From the sequence record SRR31156797_3941: a stretch of DNA of 57,362 nucleotides; one strand, written 5' to 3'. The position numbers and the translations under genes are program-made. Positions 7,991-56,335 of this stretch are shown piece by piece (position 1 is the first letter of the stretch; the number at the start of each line of letters is the position of its first letter). A model generated the notes under the pieces. That model worked only from the letters and a program-made list of their open reading frames with translations, did not search any database and had not been told where the DNA came from.

Positions 7991-9763
7991 ATGAAAATTT
8001 TGGTAATCGGTAGCGGCGGTCGCGAACACGCTCTTGTTTGGAAGCTCAAACAGTCATCACGGGCAAGTAAAATATTTTGCGCACCTGGCAATGCAGGCAT
8101 AAGTAAAATTGCCACATGCGTTGATATCGCTGCTGGCGATGTTGAAAATTTACTGCAATTTGCACTCAATGAATCCATAGATCTTACTGTGGTCGGCCCT
8201 GAAGATCCACTTACTAGCGGTATTGTCGATACATTTGAAGATAAGGGGCTGCGTATTTTCGGGCCATCAAAGGCTGGGGCAGAACTTGAGGCAAGCAAAG
8301 CTTTTACTAAGGATTTTCTTAAAAAATATAATATTCCCAGCGCCTCATACAAAGTATTCAGCAAACCTGGACAAGCCAAAAAATATATAGATAAAATTGG
8401 TGCCCCTTGTGTGGTGAAAGCAGATGGCCTCGCTGCTGGCAAAGGTGTCATTATTGCCGAGAGCAAAGACATTGCTAAACAAGCTGTAGACGCCATAATG
8501 AAAGAAAAGCGTTTTGGGGTTGCCGGAGAAAGGGTTGTTGTAGAAAGTTTTTTACGTGGGGAAGAGGCCTCGTTTATTGCCTTTACTGATGGGAAAACCG
8601 TTTTACCGTTACCTTCATCTCAAGATCATAAGGCGGCCTTTGAAGGGGATAGAGGGCCAAATACCGGCGGCATGGGCGCTTACTCACCTGCTCCTATTCT
8701 AACCGACCATTTGACCATGCGTGTTATGAATGAAGTCATGCTGCCCACTGTGAGGGGGATGGCAGAGGAAGGGCGTCCTTATAAAGGGATGCTTTACGCA
8801 GGCCTAATGATAGATAATGATAAAATAAATGTACTCGAATTTAACTGCCGGTTTGGGGATCCTGAGTGCCAGCCTCTCCTGATGCGTTTGAACAGTGACT
8901 TGGTTGATGTACTTGAACACTGTATTGATCAGACCCTCGACGAGATAGAGTTGGATATTGATCCGCGACCTACAGTATGTGTTGTCATGGCCTCAGGCGG
9001 CTACCCTGGAGATTATACAAAGGGCAAGGCTATCACAGGGTTGATCAAGGCAGGGAGGATCAAGAATGTTGAGGTCTTCCATGCGGGAACAACCACTGCA
9101 AACAGAAGGACAGTTACTAACGGCGGTAGAGTACTTGGTATTACCGCCATAGGGCAAAATATTGAAAAGGCGATTCAACTCGCGTACCAGGCCGTCGATG
9201 AGATTAGCTGGTCAGAATCCTATTACCGACGCGACATAGGACATCGAGCTTTAAAACGCTTAAAACAGCAGGAGGGACCATCTGTCGGCATTCTTATGGG
9301 TAGTGACTCTGATTTGCCCGTAATGCAGGCTGCTGCAGACGTACTCAAAAGCTTTGATATATCATATGAGATTCTCATTGCTTCTGCACACAGGACGCCT
9401 GCTCAAGCTGCAGATTATGCACAAACAGCCTACGAACGCGGCGTAAAATTGATCATTGCCGGTGCCGGAATGGCCGCGCATCTCGCTGGTGTTTTGGCTG
9501 CGCATACCACAATACCGGTTATTGGTGTGCCAATTGACGCCTCTTCGCTTAACGGTCTTGATGCGTTGCTGTCAACGGTTCAAATGCCCCCTGGAATCCC
9601 GGTTGCAACTATGGGTATCGGTAAAGCTGGAGCCAAAAATGCTGCGGTATTAGCAGCACGTATTCTTGGTATTACCGACCAAGAGATGCAGGAGAAACTG
9701 ACGCAACACGCTCTTGATATGGAACAGCAAGTATTGGAAAAAAATAATGCTTTAAAAGCATGA
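7991..9763 (+). CDS. purD: Fused phosphoribosylamine-glycine ligase (PurD) and N5-CAIR mutase (PurE)
   Basis: PurD motifs GSGGREHAL, GPNTGGMGAYSP and EFNCRFGDPE are followed in frame by PurE motifs ILMGSDSD, SAHRTP, AGMAAHLAG and STVQMPPGIPVAT. Confidence 0.96.
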   Translation: MKILVIGSGGREHALVWKLKQSSRASKIFCAPGNAGISKIATCVDIAAGDVENLLQFALNESIDLTVVGPEDPLTSGIVDTFEDKGLRIFGPSKAGAELEASKAFTKDFLKKYNIPSASYKVFSKPGQAKKYIDKIGAPCVVKADGLAAGKGVIIAESKDIAKQAVDAIMKEKRFGVAGERVVVESFLRGEEASFIAFTDGKTVLPLPSSQDHKAAFEGDRGPNTGGMGAYSPAPILTDHLTMRVMNEVMLPTVRGMAEEGRPYKGMLYAGLMIDNDKINVLEFNCRFGDPECQPLLMRLNSDLVDVLEHCIDQTLDEIELDIDPRPTVCVVMASGGYPGDYTKGKAITGLIKAGRIKNVEVFHAGTTTANRRTVTNGGRVLGITAIGQNIEKAIQLAYQAVDEISWSESYYRRDIGHRALKRLKQQEGPSVGILMGSDSDLPVMQAAADVLKSFDISYEILIASAHRTPAQAADYAQTAYERGVKLIIAGAGMAAHLAGVLAAHTTIPVIGVPIDASSLNGLDALLSTVQMPPGIPVATMGIGKAGAKNAAVLAARILGITDQEMQEKLTQHALDMEQQVLEKNNALKA

Positions 9764-10832: not shown

Positions 10833-12155
10833 TTACGGTCTTATAATCTCGCAATCACACTCAGCATCAGCAATATTGAGCAGCAAAAATTTTGCCTTAT
10901 AACCATTTTTCAACAACTCTTTATAGGCCATATCAGCCCTAGCTCCACTTGCGCAATGGACGTAAATTTTCTTGTCCTTGGGCAGTTCGCTCATACGAGC
11001 TGGGATCTCATCGAGCGGGATATTAACCGTATTCTTAAATATCCCCAATTCTGCCACTTCAGCCTTTGTACGGGCATCGACGATAATCGCCCCCTTATCT
11101 TCACCTGAGGCTGCTTTTCTAAAATCTGCTAAGGAAACTTCACCTTTACCAAGCTTACGCACCCAACGTATTTCAGTATTGAAAATCGGGCCTTTTTCAA
11201 TTGCTTCGCCGGAAGCTATCCAACCAGCGAACCCACCCTGCACAAGAGAAACAAATTTAAACCCATCGTCGCGCATGTCTTCCACGGCATCAAGGGTTTC
11301 CTGGTCACCGTAGAGAATAACAGGTGCGTTACGGGGGATATCATCGAGTCGGTCATCAAGTTGATCATACGGAATGGAGTAAGCGCCCTTAATACGACCC
11401 TTGACAGCCTCATTACTGGCACGAACATCCACAAGCACAACATTGCCGTTTTTGATAAAATCATGAGTGGCATAAGTCGGCAGAAATGCCTTGGCCCATG
11501 CAGGCTCGCCATCAAGGTAAACACGAACGTTTTTATAACCTAATTTCTTCGCCAGACCGGCGGAGGTTGTTGACATGCCTCATGTGGGGCCTCCGCAGTA
11601 GAAAACCAACAACTCGTTTTTGTCAGCCGGGAGCAAAGCTGCCTGTTTTTCTTTAAGGAGGGGGACAGGAACGGAAACCGCACCTGGAAGATGTGATTGA
11701 CCGTATCGACTTGCTGGTCTGGAGTCGACCAAATACATCTTATGATTATCGGCGACTAAAGCGCTTAACTCTTCGGTCTTGATTTCAGTGACGCCCTGAG
11801 GCAGTTTAGCTAATTTCTGCTTAACGACTTTTGCATAGGTGTCATTTCCGCGTTTTTCAAAGGTAATGATCGCAGCATGACCTTTTACAGCATGTTCAAC
11901 GCCCTGGGTTTGGTCATCAAACTTGACCATCATAATTTTGGCTTGTTTTCCTTTGCCAACTTCAATCGAGATGGTTTTGGCTAAATTTGATTTTCCGACT
12001 ATTTTTCCTTTGTAAACATTTTTTTGCACCTGCTGCTTGGTCTGTCCGGTTTTGGGAGTCATATCTTGCTTGACGTCCTCTTTCTGCGCACAGCCAAAAC
12101 TCAGCAGGCAGATCATCAACAATCCAGGTAAAAATTTGACACAGCTTTTATGCAC
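10833..12155 (-). CDS. Selenocysteine-containing multi-rhodanese (sulfurtransferase) lipoprotein, about 440 aa, Sec encoded by TGA at 11580-11582
   Basis: ORFs 11580-12206 and 10833-11576 are in frame and separated only by TGA-GGC, giving FYCGGPT-U-GMSTTSAGLAKKLGY. GTG start at 12155 follows AGGAGG. Lipobox LSFGC, three rhodanese domains and a SECIS-like hairpin after the TGA. Confidence 0.88.
11547..11565 (-). promoter_or_regulatory. Bacterial SECIS element
   Basis: Minus strand CTCCGCC-GGTCT-GGCGAAG. The CGCC/GGCG stem starts 18 nt after the UGA and carries a GGUCU apical loop like the E. coli fdhF SECIS. Confidence 0.8.
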
Positions 12156-12455
12156 GTTCAACCTCCTTTGTATGGGATTACAGGGGAAATGGTCCTCATG
12201 CTTCAAGGCTGCAGATTTGGTCCCCCAAATCTGTGTAAATCAAAAAACTCAACCATTTCCTCCTTCCTTCTTTCACACTATTAATATTAGCATTTATGTT
12301 TGTCTTTATTCAAGCACTGTGTAGCCTAATAAAAGGGATAATATTGATAACCACTATCAAACTAATAGATGGACCTAAGCAGTGACCTCTAGAGGAAACC
12401 AGTACGTAGGAACTATCACTCAGATGAAAGTACCTGTCTTAAAGGAATAAAGAAA

Positions 12456-37861: not shown

Positions 37862-38764
37862 ATGCGCCTGTTGAAATTTCGTAACGCCTCTATAACTGTT
37901 TTTATTGTTGCAGTGTGGAGCCTCCTTTTTTCTCTCCAGGTGGAGGCTCTCACTGTCCCTGAGTTAGAGGGGTATGTCAACGATACTGCGAGTATCTTGT
38001 CTGTCGGCACAAGGCAACTGTTGGAACAGCAGTTGCACCAAGTTGCTGCCCAGGACTCGACCCAAATTATAGTACTCACCATCGGCTCCCTTGGTAATGA
38101 AGATATTGAACAGTATTCTCTAGAAGTCGCAGAAACATGGGCCATAGGAGAACAACAGTTTGATAACGGGGTATTGCTGCTTATTGCTGCAAAGGATAGG
38201 AAAATCCGTATCGAAACCGGATATGGCGTTGAAGGGGTACTGACCGACCTGGTTGCCGGACGGATCATCCGTAATATAATTGTCCCCGAGTTCAGGAAAA
38301 AACAATTTGACCAAGGGGTTATCAACGGGGTTGGCGCAATAATAGAGTCGGTTAAAGGGGAATTTGATATTGCCTCTTTGGAAAAACCAACTCAAAGCCC
38401 TGATCCAGGAGGCTGGATCATAGCCTCTCTGTTTGGCTTCTTTTTTGTCGGCATTACTCTTCAAAAGAAACGAAAAATCGCTTCTGCCGCAGGCGGTCTC
38501 TACGGGTTGGTCCTTGCGCTAGTGGCGCCATTCATCAATACCATTGGCATGATTTTGCTTGTAGCAGTTGTCGGTATGATAGGCGGAGCCATTGCCAGTA
38601 CGGTGATTGTTAAAAGAGGTCGCAGTGGTCGAAAGGGGACAGGGGGCATATTCCCTGGAACTCTTGGCGATAATAATAGCCGAGGCGGCTTTGGTACCGG
38701 CAGTGAGGGATTTGGTGGTGGCGGTGGTGGATTCGGCGGCGGCGGAGCTTCAGGAGATTGGTAA
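37862..38764 (+). CDS. TPM-domain (YgcG-like) membrane protein
   Basis: YVNDTA, DNGVLLLIA, RIETGYGVEGVLTD and a GGGFGGGGASGDW tail. Confidence 0.92.
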   Translation: MRLLKFRNASITVFIVAVWSLLFSLQVEALTVPELEGYVNDTASILSVGTRQLLEQQLHQVAAQDSTQIIVLTIGSLGNEDIEQYSLEVAETWAIGEQQFDNGVLLLIAAKDRKIRIETGYGVEGVLTDLVAGRIIRNIIVPEFRKKQFDQGVINGVGAIIESVKGEFDIASLEKPTQSPDPGGWIIASLFGFFFVGITLQKKRKIASAAGGLYGLVLALVAPFINTIGMILLVAVVGMIGGAIASTVIVKRGRSGRKGTGGIFPGTLGDNNSRGGFGTGSEGFGGGGGGFGGGGASGDW

Positions 38765-38768
38765 TGAC

Positions 38769-39452
38769 ATGACACACGCACAGCGTTTTCTTAATGCAGA
38801 CGAACAGGAACAAGTTAGGCAGTGTGTACAGCGGGCAGAACAGCAGACTTCCGGTGAAATTGTTCCTATGATTGTTTCAGCAAGTCATCCGTACCCAGCG
38901 GCTGCATTGCTTGGCGGATCTGTTCTTGCCTTTTTGTCTGCAATAGTTGTTACTCAGGTACTGGGTCATACCCTGTGGCTGGGCAGCAATCTCCTTTGGG
39001 TCTTTTTAGGTCTGTTTTTCGTATTTTATCCATTAGGCACCTTTCTGGTTAACCGCGTTCCCTCAATTAAAAAGTTTTTTATAGCCGACGATCACAAGGA
39101 AATGGAGGTCCAGCGTGGTGCATTTACCAGTTTTTATGAGAAAAATCTTCATGAAACCAAGGATGCAAATGGGGTACTCATCTATGTATCAGTCCTTGAA
39201 CACAAAGTCTGGATACTGGGTGATCAACAGGTTAACCAAAAGGTGGATTCGGGAACATGGCAAGAAATAGTTGATGAGCTGACCAACGGCATCCAGCAAA
39301 ATAAACAGGGGGAATCGTTTTGCCACGCTATAGAGAGGGTTGCGCTGATCTTAAAAGAACACTTTCCTTTGCAGGCTGACGATACCAATGAACTGCGGGA
39401 TCTAATTATTAGAGGGGACAGACATAGTTGTCACCAATTAGTGGTCCGCTAG
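38769..39452 (+). CDS. TPM-domain membrane protein (third gene of the lemA-TPM-TPM operon)
   Basis: AEQQTSGEIV, GVLIYVSVLEHKVWILGD and HFP...DDTNEL; ATG at 38769. Confidence 0.88.
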   Translation: MTHAQRFLNADEQEQVRQCVQRAEQQTSGEIVPMIVSASHPYPAAALLGGSVLAFLSAIVVTQVLGHTLWLGSNLLWVFLGLFFVFYPLGTFLVNRVPSIKKFFIADDHKEMEVQRGAFTSFYEKNLHETKDANGVLIYVSVLEHKVWILGDQQVNQKVDSGTWQEIVDELTNGIQQNKQGESFCHAIERVALILKEHFPLQADDTNELRDLIIRGDRHSCHQLVVR

Positions 39453-51504: not shown

Positions 51505-52803
51505 TCAAACTTTTTCCAGTATCTCACGACTTCGTTTTACAGCACAAAGATCGCCGCACATGGTGCACACATCCTTGTCGATAGGTTGGGAAGAAGCACG
51601 GTAAGCACGAGCCTTTTCAGGATCAATGGCGAGATCAAACATCTTTTCCCAGTCCAGTTCTTTGCGAGCATGGCTCATCTTGTTATCCCAGTCAATGGCA
51701 TTGGGAATACCTTTGGCTACGTCTGCTGCATGAGCAGCAATACGGGTGGCAATAATTCCCTGCTTCATGTCGTCTTCATCCGGCAGGCGAAGGTGTTCTG
51801 CGGGGGTGACATAGCAGAGAAAATCAGCACCAGATGCGGCTGCCAGTGCGCCACCAATTGCAGAGGTGATATGGTCATAGCCGGGCGCAACATCCGTAAC
51901 AATGGGTCCAAGCACGTAAAATGGTGCTCCATGACAAAGTTTCTTCTCTATCTGCATATTTGAAACCACCTCGTTGAGCGGCACATGGCCCGGTCCTTCG
52001 ATCATGACCTGAACGTCGGCCTCCCAGGATCGTTTGGTCAGCTCACCCAGTACAATCAACTCTTGGATCTGAGCAGCATCAGTGGCATCGTTCAAGCTGC
52101 CCGGGCGCAGTCCGTCACCAAGGCTAAGTGTCACATCGTACTGTCTACACATTTCAAGCAAGCGATCATAATGCTCAAAAAAGGGATTCTCAGCATCATT
52201 GACATCCATCCAGTGGAGCAGTAGTGAGCCGCCACGGCTGACTACGTGAGTGAGGCGAGGGTTGTTTTTCAGTCGCTCGACAGCAGTGCGGTTCAGTCCG
52301 GCATGGATGGTTAAAAAATCGACTCCGTCTTCCGCATGCATTTTGACAACATTAAAAAAATCATCAACTGTGATAGCTCCAACATTTTTACCATAGCGGG
52401 CAACGGCATCATATACCGGTACAGTACCAATCATAGCTGGACAAACTTCCACAGTTCTTTTGCGAAAGGTCTGGGTATCGCCAAAGGTACTTAAATCCAT
52501 AATGGCATCTGCCTTGAGTTCCACCGAACGACGAACCTTCGTAAGCTCTTTCTCTACGTTGCAGCAGTCCTCGGATACACCAAGATTAACGTTAACCTTA
52601 GTCCGTAGGCCACTGCCAATACCACAGCCAACGAGGTTGGTATGATTCACATTTGCGGGTATGACAATATGGCCGTTGGCTATTTTGGTTAAAAGATCAG
52701 TTTCTGCTATGACTTCACTTGCAAGCACGTCCTGCATCTGTTTGGTGACAATGCCCTGCCGTGCTGCGTCCATCTGGGTTGTATATGTGGTCACTTTATT
52801 CAC
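51505..52803 (-). CDS. thiC: Phosphomethylpyrimidine synthase
   Basis: [48 protein letters not shown] and CTMCGDLC. Confidence 0.97.
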
Positions 52804-52854
52804 TCCGAAAGATGTATATTTTTCGTTATTGATAAATGATTAAGGATAAAAAGA

Positions 52855-53493
52855 CTAAAAGATGTTGTTCAAGTTTTTCACCGCCTGGGCAATATCATCT
52901 GCGCCGACAATCTCTGAGACAAGGCAGATTGACTGTGCACCACGCTTTACCACCTCATCAATGTTGTGCTGCTTAATGCCGCCGATTGCGACACATGGGA
53001 TGATGGCATTTTTCACTGCATATTCAAGGTAATCGAAACCTACCGCAGCACAGGCATTTTCCTTGGTTTTAGTGGCGTAAATAGGACCGACACCTATATA
53101 GTCTGCCCCGACTTCCTGTGCCTGTTGCAACTGCTCAGGCGAATGGGTCGACAGCCCGATGATCTTATCTGGCCCAAGCAGGTGACGAACCGCATAGACT
53201 GGTAAATCTTCTTGGCCTACGTGGACGCCGTCGGCATCGACAAGGAGGGCGATATCGACAAAATCGTTGATGATAAAAGTGACCCCATGCTCTCTTGTAA
53301 TATCTCTGATTGCCTGGCATTCAGCTAAAATGTCACAATAGTCTTTCTGGTGTCTTTTTTCTCGGTACTGTATGACCTTGATACCGCCTTTGATCATTTC
53401 TTCTACGACATGGATATTTGAGCGGCCGCAGGAAAATTTTTCAGAGGTGATACCGTAAATCCCAAGTGGTAGAGTTGTGGTATTACATATCAT
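52855..53493 (-). CDS. thiE: Thiamine-phosphate synthase
   Basis: QYREK, INDFVDIA..DADGVHVGQED, GLSTH, GPIYATKTK and AIGGI. Start is 53493 or 53505. Confidence 0.95.
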   Translation of the reverse strand: MICNTTTLPLGIYGITSEKFSCGRSNIHVVEEMIKGGIKVIQYREKRHQKDYCDILAECQAIRDITREHGVTFIINDFVDIALLVDADGVHVGQEDLPVYAVRHLLGPDKIIGLSTHSPEQLQQAQEVGADYIGVGPIYATKTKENACAAVGFDYLEYAVKNAIIPCVAIGGIKQHNIDEVVKRGAQSICLVSEIVGADDIAQAVKNLNNIF

Positions 53494-54022
53494 TATCTTT
53501 TCCAAAGTTAAGAAGAACCGCTGTCATGCGAGCAGCCACCGTCACAACCTTATGGGCATATAGCGCTGCGTGACAACAGTCAGTGGTAAAATCACCTATA
53601 ACATGAGTGTTGCCGATTTTTTTAACGTAGATGGTTTCAATATCGCTGCCGGCAATCCCGCTTGCAGAAACAACCAACCGTTTGTTTTGGCTAAAATGCT
53701 CGATCACCATTTTTTTATCTGCCTGTTTGTCAAGGCCTTCGACAATGGTGTCACAGTTAAGAAAAAGCTGGTTAATATTATCAGATGTAATGTGCTCGGT
53801 GCTGACTTCAATTTTGATATCAGGATTAATACGTTCCAGGTTGTAGCGCAGCATCTTCACCTTTAGTCTTCCAACCTGATCGGCAAAATAGAACTGTCGG
53901 TCCAGGTTCGAAGATTCAACACGATCAAAATCAATAATCTTAAATGCAGTGATGCCGCTACGAACAAGGTTTACCGCAACATTAGAGCCAACCCCGCCGG
54001 CACCGGCTATTCCTATCTTCAT
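53483..54022 (-). CDS. thiF: Sulfur carrier protein ThiS adenylyltransferase (short ThiF type)
   Basis: GIAGAGGVGS and DFDRVESSNLDRQ; TAATG coupling to thiH. Confidence 0.9.
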   Translation of the reverse strand: MKIGIAGAGGVGSNVAVNLVRSGITAFKIIDFDRVESSNLDRQFYFADQVGRLKVKMLRYNLERINPDIKIEVSTEHITSDNINQLFLNCDTIVEGLDKQADKKMVIEHFSQNKRLVVSASGIAGSDIETIYVKKIGNTHVIGDFTTDCCHAALYAHKVVTVAARMTAVLLNFGKDNDM

Positions 54023-55128
54023 TAAATTTGGTCCCAATCCTTATACACAGGTTGATAACCATGGGTAGTTATAGCATCTGCCACCTGGCATACACTACGA
54101 GTGTCTGTAATCTCAAATTGAGGAGTATCTGTTTCTTCGTTTTCCGAGTAACCTCCGACACTGGTACATACTCCTGCGGAGAGGCGGGTTGCGCCAAGAT
54201 GTATCAGGTTATCGCGCATCATTTGATTTTCCCTGGTGGAAACAGTGATGCCGGCACGCGGCTGAAAAAGTCTTAAAGCCATTAAAAATTGAACAAAGGT
54301 TCTGTCATCCACAGGATATTGAGGAGAGAAATCACAATCAGCTTCGTTAAAGCGGGGCAGGGAGACGGAAATTTCAGTATCGAGGTAGGTATCATCCAGG
54401 TACGCTGCGTGCAAACCAGTAAAGAAAAATTCACTCCGTTTTTCGCCTAAACCCAGCAAAGCACCAATATTGACAGATCTGAAACCAGCTTTTGCTCCAC
54501 GTTCAGGCCCATCAAGCCTGAAAAAGTAATCTTTCTTTTTGCCTGCCACATGGACCTCAGCATAGACCTTTTGATCATACGCTTCCTGGAAAAGGGTTAA
54601 TCCATCAACACCTGCCTTTTTCAACTGCCTGTATTCATCCACGTTCATGGGGAAAATTTCAATTGAAACCGACGCGAAGTATTTTTTGAGACAGGTAACT
54701 GCTTCAACCAAGTAATCTATCGGAGTCGCTTGTTTTGATTCACCGGTTAGCACCAGCAAATGTTGGAGCCCTGTCGCAGCAATTGACTGGGCCTCTTTCT
54801 CTATTTCGTGAAGAGACAGCTTGCGACGGACAATATGATTAGCTTTGTTAAAACCGCAATAAATGCAATGGTTAGAGCAAAAATTTGAGATGTAAAGCGG
54901 GGTGAAAAGTTGAATAGTTTTACCGAAGTACTGCACAGTAAGGCGTTGGGCCTTGTGAGCTATTAATTCTAAATGTTCAGCAGCTTTTGGGCTAAGCAGG
55001 GTAAGAAAATCCATGGGCTGGATTGTGTCCTTGGCAACAATACGCTCAATATCATTATCCGTGACCTGCTCAAAAAAATCTGGAAAAGAGAAACCTTTGT
55101 ACTGCTCAACTATTTGAGAGAAGGACAT
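54022..55128 (-). CDS. thiH: 2-iminoacetate synthase (radical SAM)
   Basis: PLYISNFCSNHCIYCGF, FQEAY, STRE and YQPVYKDWD; RBS AGGAG. Confidence 0.95.
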   Translation of the reverse strand: MSFSQIVEQYKGFSFPDFFEQVTDNDIERIVAKDTIQPMDFLTLLSPKAAEHLELIAHKAQRLTVQYFGKTIQLFTPLYISNFCSNHCIYCGFNKANHIVRRKLSLHEIEKEAQSIAATGLQHLLVLTGESKQATPIDYLVEAVTCLKKYFASVSIEIFPMNVDEYRQLKKAGVDGLTLFQEAYDQKVYAEVHVAGKKKDYFFRLDGPERGAKAGFRSVNIGALLGLGEKRSEFFFTGLHAAYLDDTYLDTEISVSLPRFNEADCDFSPQYPVDDRTFVQFLMALRLFQPRAGITVSTRENQMMRDNLIHLGATRLSAGVCTSVGGYSENEETDTPQFEITDTRSVCQVADAITTHGYQPVYKDWDQI

Positions 55129-55178
55129 GTTCCACTCCTGTATTAAGGTCAATAGCAAATAGTAAAAGTGCCCTCAGG

Positions 55179-55949
55179 TTAGTTCAGAAAACCTGTTAAC
55201 GGTGAGGATGCCCGGGCAGCAGTGCTCATTTCCTGGGCCTCTGCCAGGTAAGCAGCTCGCCCTGCTCGTACTGCCAAGTTAAAAGCGCTGCCCATAGTCT
55301 CGGGGTCTTTTGCGGTAGCAATAGCAGTATTAACAAGCACAGCGTCAGCGCCCATCTCCATTGCTGCTGCAGCTTGAGAAGGTTGGCCTATCCCGGCATC
55401 AATCACCACCGGTATGGAGCAGTTTTCAATCAGCATCGCGAGCAGCGGTTTTGTCTCCAGTCCTCGATTGGTACCGATCGGAGACCCAAGCGGCATAACT
55501 GCGGCAGCCCCTGCAGACTCAAGCCTTTTGGCAAGCGGTAAGTCTGGCAGCACATAAGGCAGCACCACAAAACCTTCTTTAGCCAGTGTTTCCGTAGCGT
55601 TGAGTGTCTCATAGTTATCTGGCATCAGGTATTTAGAGTCGGTGATCACCTCAATTTTGATAAAATTTCCGCAACCTGCCTCCCTGGCAATGCGTGCCAC
55701 TCGTACTGCTTCTTTTGCTGTGCGTGCACCGGATGTGTTGGGGAGCAGAGTGACGTTATCGGGTATAAAATCAAGGATGTTTTCAGTTTTTGACCCAATA
55801 TCAATACGCCTCAAGGCAACGGTGATCATCTGGGAACCGCTTGCTTTAAGCATTTTTGGGATTTGGGTATTTGCAGCAAATTTTCCGGTTCCGGTAAAAA
55901 GACGGTTGGTAAAGGTTAGGTTGCCGAGTTTCAGGCCTTGATCCACCAT
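55179..55949 (-). CDS. thiG: Thiazole synthase
   Basis: [37 protein letters not shown] and ASSP. Confidence 0.97.
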
Positions 55950-56200: not shown

Positions 56201-56245
56201 GAAAGTCTCAAAAAATATAAATAGAATTTTGAAAATTCGTTATTA

Positions 56246-56328
56246 GCCGCTTCCCTTCGCCGGTATTATCCGGATCAGGTTGTAAGGGTTGGATAGATTC
56301 CTCTCAGCAGAGACAGCACCCCTAGCGA
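56246..56328 (-). ncRNA. TPP riboswitch aptamer (THI element)
   Basis: Minus strand CTAGGGGTGC...GCTGAGA...ACCCTTACAACCTGATCCGGATAATACCGGCGAAGGGAAG, upstream of thiS. Confidence 0.96.
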
Positions 56329-56335
56329 TGTTTCT

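Follow-up and report, generated by a model that had tools for sequence, protein, structure and literature searches.

A probable selenocysteine codon inside a three-domain rhodanese gene of the Desulfobulbales, compared with known rhodanese selenoproteins

Rhodanese-related sulfurtransferases stand among the selenoprotein families in earlier surveys (available parts of PMC1088965 and PMC1976440), and the available part of a 2026 review (PMC13188914) gives five rhodanese selenoprotein forms: UxxS, UxxG, CxU (NF041203), UxxG of the COG2897 type and TsoB with UxxxxU, where U is selenocysteine (Sec). Here, a related gene is described from sequence record SRR31156797_3941, a stretch of 57,362 nucleotides (nt) that was analysed as a whole and is called the window. 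Judging from sequence comparison, positions 10833-12155 on the minus strand very probably form one gene, with an internal UGA codon that is read as Sec within the catalytic loop of a rhodanese domain (CxxxxU). Since rhodanese selenoproteins are already established, the gene is an unannotated member of this group and its description is a correction of annotation, not a new principle.

Read directly from the window, the minus strand around codon 192 is TAC TGC GGA GGC CCC ACA TGA GGC ATG TCA, as reported in an earlier note on this DNA, and the TGA is the sole break in the frame running from a GTG at 12155 to a TAA at 10833. Translation with TGA as U from this GTG yields a protein of 440 residues in which residue 192 is U and 248 codons follow, in agreement with the open frame and the Sec position (residue 192 of about 440 amino acids, aa) proposed in that note. 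Under translation table 11, two open reading frames (ORFs) adjoin the TGA in this one frame, 11580..12206 and 10833..11576 (247 aa), the latter starting at an ATG two codons past the TGA. Regarding the start of the gene, among 72 orthologous loci the candidate nearest to 191 residues before codon 192 is in most cases GTG or ATG, with a GGAGG-like ribosome-binding site ahead of it. TGA is the stop of 17 of the 41 genes of the window, so the genetic code is ordinary, and other frames split by a TGA, when scanned for across the window, turned out to be antisense or overlap artefacts only. The features at the level of the gene are the following.

10833..12155, minus strand: whole gene, with GTG start, 440 codons, a UGA at codon 192 predicted to encode Sec, and TAA stop; collinear with homologues of about 440 aa.
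12162..12169, minus strand: ribosome-binding site AAAGGAGG, 6 nt ahead of the GTG; most orthologues have a GGAGG-like site.
11580..11582, minus strand: UGA codon 192, probably read as Sec; TGA in 43, TGC or TGT in 36 and neither in 1 of 80 orthologous loci.
11550..11562, minus strand: SECIS-like hairpin (SECIS, selenocysteine insertion sequence) CGCC-GGUCU-GGCG, at nt 21-33 counting the U of UGA as 1, its first base being the 18th nt after the UGA.

The protein search covered 5.8 billion proteins, and its figures refer to the 120 best homologues listed. Among these, 53 are pieces of 247-248 aa that match exactly the part after the TGA, while most others are collinear and about 440 aa long, and a few are shorter partial sequences; with residues 1-191 as query, matching pieces of 191 aa were recovered. 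When the window protein (P0001) was aligned with 38 full-length homologues chosen among the 120, Cys187 and Cys192 were found to be nearly invariant in these homologues, the sole exception being P0099, which has neither. At the DNA level, a scan of Desulfobulbales species genomes confirmed 249 relatives, and the counts given for codons refer to the best 80 loci. A motif script assigned 38 of them to TGA and 36 to TGC/TGT and missed six, which were resolved separately: five carry TGA, preceded by different residues (MYCGGPT or AFCGGPT), and the sixth, L069, reads FYDGGHGRG, with neither cysteine. Thus codon 192 is TGA in 43 loci (Sec forms), a Cys codon in 36 (Cys forms) and neither in one, which is the standard Sec/Cys signature in sequence comparison and answers the question, raised in the earlier note, of whether homologues have Cys or a conserved TGA at this place. 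The TGA is conserved even in orthologues of only about 50% amino-acid identity, and the frames before and after it are intact. As a separate observation, L069 and P0099 represent a paralogous or divergent copy in which both loop cysteines are lost (FYDGGHGRG); L069 belongs to the same metagenome-assembled genome as L027 and coexists there with a Cys-form copy.

The hairpin was located at 11562-11550, starting 18 nt past the UGA as described before, and its nt 21-33 lie within the range of 16-37 nt that bSECISearch considers. All 44 Sec forms (43 loci and the window) have its stem CGCC...GGCG, with the loops GGUCU (38), GGUCA (3) and GGUUC (3), and the place varies in the Cys forms, so that the conserved UGA is accompanied by a conserved putative SECIS, the combination that had been named as a check. 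In the loci with GGUUC on the CGCC/GGCG stem (L054, L055, L062), Leu is changed to Ser in the protein. At the codon level, 39 Sec forms (38 loci and the window) have at positions +7 to +10 GCC (39), GGT (39), CTG (37; CAG in 2) and GCG (39), while comparably conserved residues nearby use 2-6 synonymous codons each in the Sec forms, and the Ala residues at +7 and +10 are each encoded by four codons in the 36 Cys forms. This invariance at synonymous sites, restricted to the Sec forms, makes the comparative case for a predicted SECIS element decisive. Some Cys forms (L057, L060, L064, L070) retain GCCGGTC(T/A)GGC(G/A) at the SECIS position, and remnants resembling GCCGGTCAGGCG occur in some of them, as in L060 and L070; such sequences look like relics of a recent change from Sec to Cys.

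In Escherichia coli fdhF, the SECIS includes a bulged U and an extended lower helix. The comparison with this gene, already drawn in the earlier note, holds in the fetched E. coli K-12 sequence, TGA CAC GGC CCA TCG GTT GCA GGT CTG CAC, which contains the expected GCA GGT CTG CAC and has GGUCUG at nt 22-27. The window gene has GGUCUG at nt 25-30, thus with GGU CUG in frame as in fdhF, but one codon further from the UGA; moreover, only the GC stem of 4 base pairs (bp) is conserved in the Sec forms, unlike the long lower helix of fdhF.

Regarding the machinery for Sec insertion, five relatives were examined, three species with the Sec form and two with the Cys form, including Desulfogranum marinum. 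The genome of D. marinum DSM 2058 is the nearest one, with 88% amino-acid identity of the protein and 10 kb around the gene in synteny at 80% nucleotide identity. Of selA, selB, selC and selD, whose presence in the genome had been put forward as a check, the tRNA for Sec (tRNA-Sec) above cut-off, selA and selD occur in all five relatives and selB above the curated cut-off in four, that of D. rhabdoformis being below it. Each selD has its own single in-frame TGA (e.g. G001:C151:42295-43236). From these relatives, the source organism is inferred to have the Sec machinery, and since the machinery is kept in relatives with the Cys form, the switch to Cys is not tied to its loss. As a side observation, selD itself appears to be a selenoprotein gene in this clade (G001-G005).

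The 440-aa protein matches PF00581 of Pfam with 137.8 bits (gathering score 22.2) in three rhodanese stretches, and a search of the ESM Atlas with the homologue P0025 returned rhodanese clusters only. The best stretch, residues 128-222, spans the TGA, which thus falls in the middle of a domain, in the rhodanese loop, as had been proposed. The parts of the protein are the following.

12090..12155, minus strand: putative signal peptide with lipobox, residues 1-22 (...LLSFG-C22); L18, G21 and C22 nearly invariant in the homologue alignment.
11811..12023, minus strand: N-terminal domain without assigned family, about residues 45-115, conserved in the homologue alignment.
11490..11774, minus strand: rhodanese domain 1, residues 128-222, with the loop C187-GGPT-U192 (U as predicted); best PF00581 stretch, with Protein Data Bank (PDB) matches to BH2092 and 6mxv.
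11595..11597, minus strand: codon of Cys187, the canonical rhodanese catalytic Cys of domain 1, aligned with the loop Cys of PspE and 6mxv.
11202..11468, minus strand: rhodanese domain 2, about residues 230-318; PF00581, with a GlpE-type match at 230-315 and an Alr3790 match at 240-318.
10893..11138, minus strand: rhodanese domain 3, about residues 340-421, with the loop H-C401-ASGARA; PF00581, with a match to the rhodanese domain of CoA-disulfide reductase.
10851..10859, minus strand: C-terminal motif C433-D-C435; C435 nearly invariant in the homologue alignment.

The N-terminus, as read from the sequence without a signal-peptide predictor, is rich in lysine and basic, then hydrophobic, and ends in LSFG-C22, with conservation of 90% or more at G21 and C22; both features point to a lipoprotein. 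The sole Pfam match of the N-terminal domain is BipA_C, below threshold (22 bits alone and 18.4 in the whole protein, cut-off 23.8). In domain 1 the loop reads FYC187-GGPT-U192-GMS, with the predicted Sec192 five residues beyond Cys187, and position 187 is Cys in all of the 39 Sec forms and 36 Cys forms compared. The catalytic Cys at the start of the loop is present in domains 1 (C187) and 3 (C401) and absent from domain 2, whose catalytic place reads LYGD; in domain 3, C401, G404 and R406 are invariant in the homologue alignment. Aligning the three rhodanese domains of the protein with each other did not fix the register of the loop.

Several observations weigh against a Sec-decoded gene or its supposed mode of action. 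The fold of 71 nt has -13.3 kcal/mol and z = +0.28, with 123 of 200 shuffles folding as well or better, and the hairpin consists of four GC pairs only. RNAalifold kept just this 4-bp helix, with no conserved lower stem and no covariation, the latter because the hairpin never varies; in Rfam, there was no match at the site at gathering thresholds or at E up to 10. In the 57-kb window, a Pfam survey of 40 larger ORFs gave housekeeping genes and no sel genes, and beside the gene there is no conserved DsbD-like or Psr-like partner among 81 loci, only housekeeping synteny. Regarding the mechanism, the HMMER alignments to PspE and 6mxv have a two-residue gap in the loop of domain 1, from which its geometry may differ from that of textbook rhodaneses. 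The hairpin is placed above chance because of its invariance in the comparison, and not by the fold of a single sequence.

The same locus could instead be two separate genes or a pseudogene, with an exported fragment of 191 residues followed by a 247-residue ORF that is translated from its ATG or not at all. NCBI does list pieces of 191 and 247 aa, and the ATG lies two codons past the UGA; however, no Shine-Dalgarno sequence stands ahead of this internal ATG, and the stop would fall inside domain 1 just past the loop Cys, leaving a partial domain in each piece. With 36 of the 80 orthologues uninterrupted and carrying Cys at the codon, and with the TGA kept in 43 loci over the range of identity given above, such a split is very unlikely. 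Alternatively, one gene could be translated through the UGA by a standard tRNA (near-cognate Trp, Cys or Gly, or a suppressor) without Sec, and it is true that the inserted residue is deduced from sequence and that the hairpin is small. Against this, all 36 loci that keep the motif without TGA have Cys, the hairpin loop begins with GGU as in fdhF and is frozen in the TGA forms only, the Sec machinery is found in all five relatives, and other genes of the window use TGA as a normal stop, so that reading by a standard tRNA is highly improbable. Finally, a single-base change would turn the TGA into TGC or TGT, and an assembly or sequencing error could thus mimic it, but the same TGA occurs in 43 independent genomes, which leaves this explanation a negligible share. 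A Logan contig of run X1 is likewise identical throughout, though it may stem from the source sample and is then not independent. Contigs of the runs X2 and X6 span 11530-11744 with roughly 88-90% identity; none of the differences listed, from a table short of 111 rows, is at 11580-11582, which carries no weight for or against an error.

A single Sec-decoded gene is therefore the preferred reading, and public annotation splits it, as the earlier note expected of standard pipelines: RefSeq has separate proteins of 191 and 247 aa in Desulfogranum species. In D. marinum, the 191-aa piece is WP_205221352.1 and the 247-aa piece WP_205221353.1, and their GenBank entries, MBM9511621.1 and MBM9511622.1, follow each other directly; the same pair is found in D. 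mediterraneum, and the 247-aa piece of Desulfobulbus propionicus DSM 2032 is in NCBI. No NCBIfam model captures the 440-aa family. Literature searches found nothing on rhodanese selenocysteine in Desulfobulbus and, by title and abstract, nothing relevant on a second loop cysteine in rhodaneses; a further search listed no paper that deals with this family. Periplasmic rhodaneses are described as highly expressed in sulfide oxidation and sulfur disproportionation by Desulfobulbaceae in the available part of a rhodanese survey (PMC13047784), whose main text has the word 'selenocysteine' 0 times and whose Table S2 may list this gene. A Sec codon thus interrupts this gene in 43 of 80 Desulfobulbales loci, over half of those sampled, and public records show two proteins, of which the C-terminal one, having no signal peptide, would probably be scored as cytoplasmic; where rhodaneses of sulfur-cycling bacteria are sorted into periplasmic and cytoplasmic ones, this split can be misleading.

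As for a possible mode of action, UGA 192 would be decoded by SelA, SelB, SelD and tRNA-Sec, directed by a minimal SECIS hairpin inside the coding region, and the product would be an exported lipoprotein composed of the N-terminal domain and three rhodanese domains. That Cys187 and Sec192 make up a redox-active pair is inferred with slightly less than even confidence. In such a pair, sulfane sulfur from polysulfide, elemental sulfur (S0) or thiosulfate would be taken on Cys187 or Sec192 and resolved by the other residue; Cys187 is the usual persulfide site of rhodaneses, and the selenol of Sec192 would be well placed to attack, so that a selenenylsulfide could form and sulfide be released or sulfur relayed. 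Domain 3, with its ordinary C401 loop, might serve as a persulfide carrier of the conventional kind in the periplasm of the source bacterium, a sulfur-metabolising member of the Desulfobulbaceae. Since the protein appears to be an exported lipoprotein in this family, for which highly expressed periplasmic rhodaneses are described (available part of PMC13047784), it may handle polysulfide, S0 or thiosulfate on the outer side of the cytoplasmic membrane. The most far-reaching version is doubtful: CxxxxU as a selenenylsulfide redox centre attacking S0, polysulfide or thiosulfate in the periplasm, thus a selenium-dependent step of disproportionation or respiration, with Sec ancestral and replaced by Cys at least five times. 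If it were true, a rhodanese domain would have changed from passively carrying sulfur to enzymatically releasing or relaying sulfide.

The history of codon 192 was followed on an unrooted FastTree tree of 74 rows, which excludes L050, because of its short length, as well as the six loci resolved separately. Eight Sec/Cys changes are needed on this tree, at least five of them forced by well-supported branches, compared to a mean of about 25 with shuffled labels. An older Sec, repeatedly replaced by Cys, would be the simpler reading of this unrooted tree, because distant Sec clades have an identical hairpin, and the SECIS-like relics in some Cys forms also suggest it. One gene tree thus holds at least five to eight switches between Sec and Cys, in lineages keeping the Sec machinery either way.

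Regarding the neighbourhood, the genes found beside the 81 loci are a PurD-PurE-like ORF of 590 aa (32 loci), Sua5/YrdC (27), Hpt (26), a TetR-family regulator (21) and an HrpA-like helicase (10), the names PurD-PurE and HrpA having been given by eye. The PurD-PurE-like ORF, the most conserved neighbour, lies at 7991-9763 on the plus strand of the window. Upstream of the orthologues, there is a divergent PAS histidine kinase in 17 loci and an NtrC-type sigma-54 activator in 16, and the window gene has the HrpA-like helicase in place of kinase and activator. Near-consensus sigma-54 promoters (TGGCAC/T-N5-TTGCT or CTGC) are found about 100-210 nt upstream in L049, L059, L063, L064, L071, L073, L074 and L076, a deeper-branching set of orthologues; ahead of the window gene there is only a weak sigma-54-type match, GGGGACCAAATCTGCA at -70, and L001 is without it. 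Elsewhere in the window, a TPP riboswitch (74.1 bits; 56235-56333, minus strand) precedes a thiamine operon of that strand (51505-55949), which encodes ThiG, a radical-SAM/BATS protein, TMP synthase and ThiC. In addition, two overlapping plus-strand ORFs in different frames, 37862-38764 and 38607-39452, both match the TPM-phosphatase domain, and may reflect a frameshift or two neighbouring paralogues with a wrongly assigned start.

Comparing the protein with the described rhodanese selenoproteins, the best match among the selenoprotein-specific NCBIfam models is NF041203, rhodanese_LYCAU ('form 3', CxU), with 70.3 bits at a cut-off of 115. Both have a rhodanese Sec near the catalytic Cys, but NF041203 is a single domain of about 126 profile positions with Sec at +2, while the window protein would have it at +5, with the motif CxxxxU and not CxU. 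The window family may belong to 'form 1' (PF00581, UxxS, WP_010941598.1; available parts of PMC13188914 and PMC9312934), since U-G-M-S fits UxxS, a comparison by motif only. The motif CxxxxU-x-L-S likewise occurs in further rhodanese subfamilies of the phylum (13 of 30 loci). Among solved structures, the rhodanese BH2092 (PDB 3nhv, 3o3w) has a CxxxxC loop, YCWGPAC, which aligns without gaps to YCGGPTU. The earlier statement that many rhodaneses carry YCGGxxC thus holds within the family, where 36 of 80 loci have Cys, with BH2092 having YCWGPAC at the aligned place; unlike the window protein, BH2092 is all-Cys and single-domain. To our knowledge, no function has been described for BH2092.

ExtH of Geobacter sulfurreducens is, by the description in the available parts of PMC6148476 and PMC5877670, a rhodanese-domain lipoprotein of 49 kDa, close in size to the window protein, in a setting related to sulfur and selenium, to which the window protein was compared by description. 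It is encoded in the extHIJKL conduit cluster, unlike the window gene with its housekeeping neighbours. No multihaem neighbours were seen around two other CxxxxU rhodaneses that were fetched, and the idea of an Ext-type conduit was dropped.

A search with domain 1 across the phylum gave matches in 127 of 401 genomes, and 13 of 30 fetched loci, from other subfamilies of rhodaneses, carry a TGA at the equivalent place of the loop (FYCGGFRUVLSP, FYCGGLAUPFT, VYCRSFRULRG). The putative Sec codon at +5 of the loop is thus widespread beyond the window family. Such loci include L095, L102, L106, L109, L111, L112, L115, L100, L110, L104 and L092; their frames span about 400-500 aa, and each locus has a stem-loop of its own further downstream, for instance GCCGCCAGGTTGGCGG.

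Another close loop is that of TsoB (NF045694, 'form 5'; PMC13188914), in which VFYUAGLTUVRSDSAARVAVKLGY aligns without gaps to VFYCGGPTUGMSTTSAGLAKKLGY of the window protein, so that Sec192 would be the counterpart of the second Sec of TsoB; a stem-loop also follows the second UGA of TsoB at a similar distance, as seen by eye. NF045694 is named as a rhodanese/DsbD fusion, genes above its cut-off were located in 25 of the 401 genomes sampled across the phylum, every listed match containing two TGAs, and the loop UxxxxU is present in six aligned TsoB loci. TsoB has two Sec and a fused DsbD-type membrane domain within a selenoprotein operon (available part of PMC13188914), whereas the window protein has Cys and a predicted Sec, three rhodanese domains and a putative lipoprotein signal, and no DsbD part. 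The match of the window protein to NF045694 reaches 59.4 bits at a cut-off of 805 and covers profile positions 42-158 of 572 only. In the nearest relative, a DsbD-like frame of 440 aa (G001:C157:7529-8758) with one in-frame TGA matches the TsoB profile at positions 150-548 with 172 bits, and may be another selenoprotein and a candidate supplier of reductant. The series of Cys/Cys, Cys/Sec and Sec/Sec loops and the reductant-importing DsbD-type fusion of TsoB fit a redox-active pair in the window protein, without proving it, and this natural series, with TsoB as its Sec/Sec member, is a ready system for studying the role of the second chalcogen.

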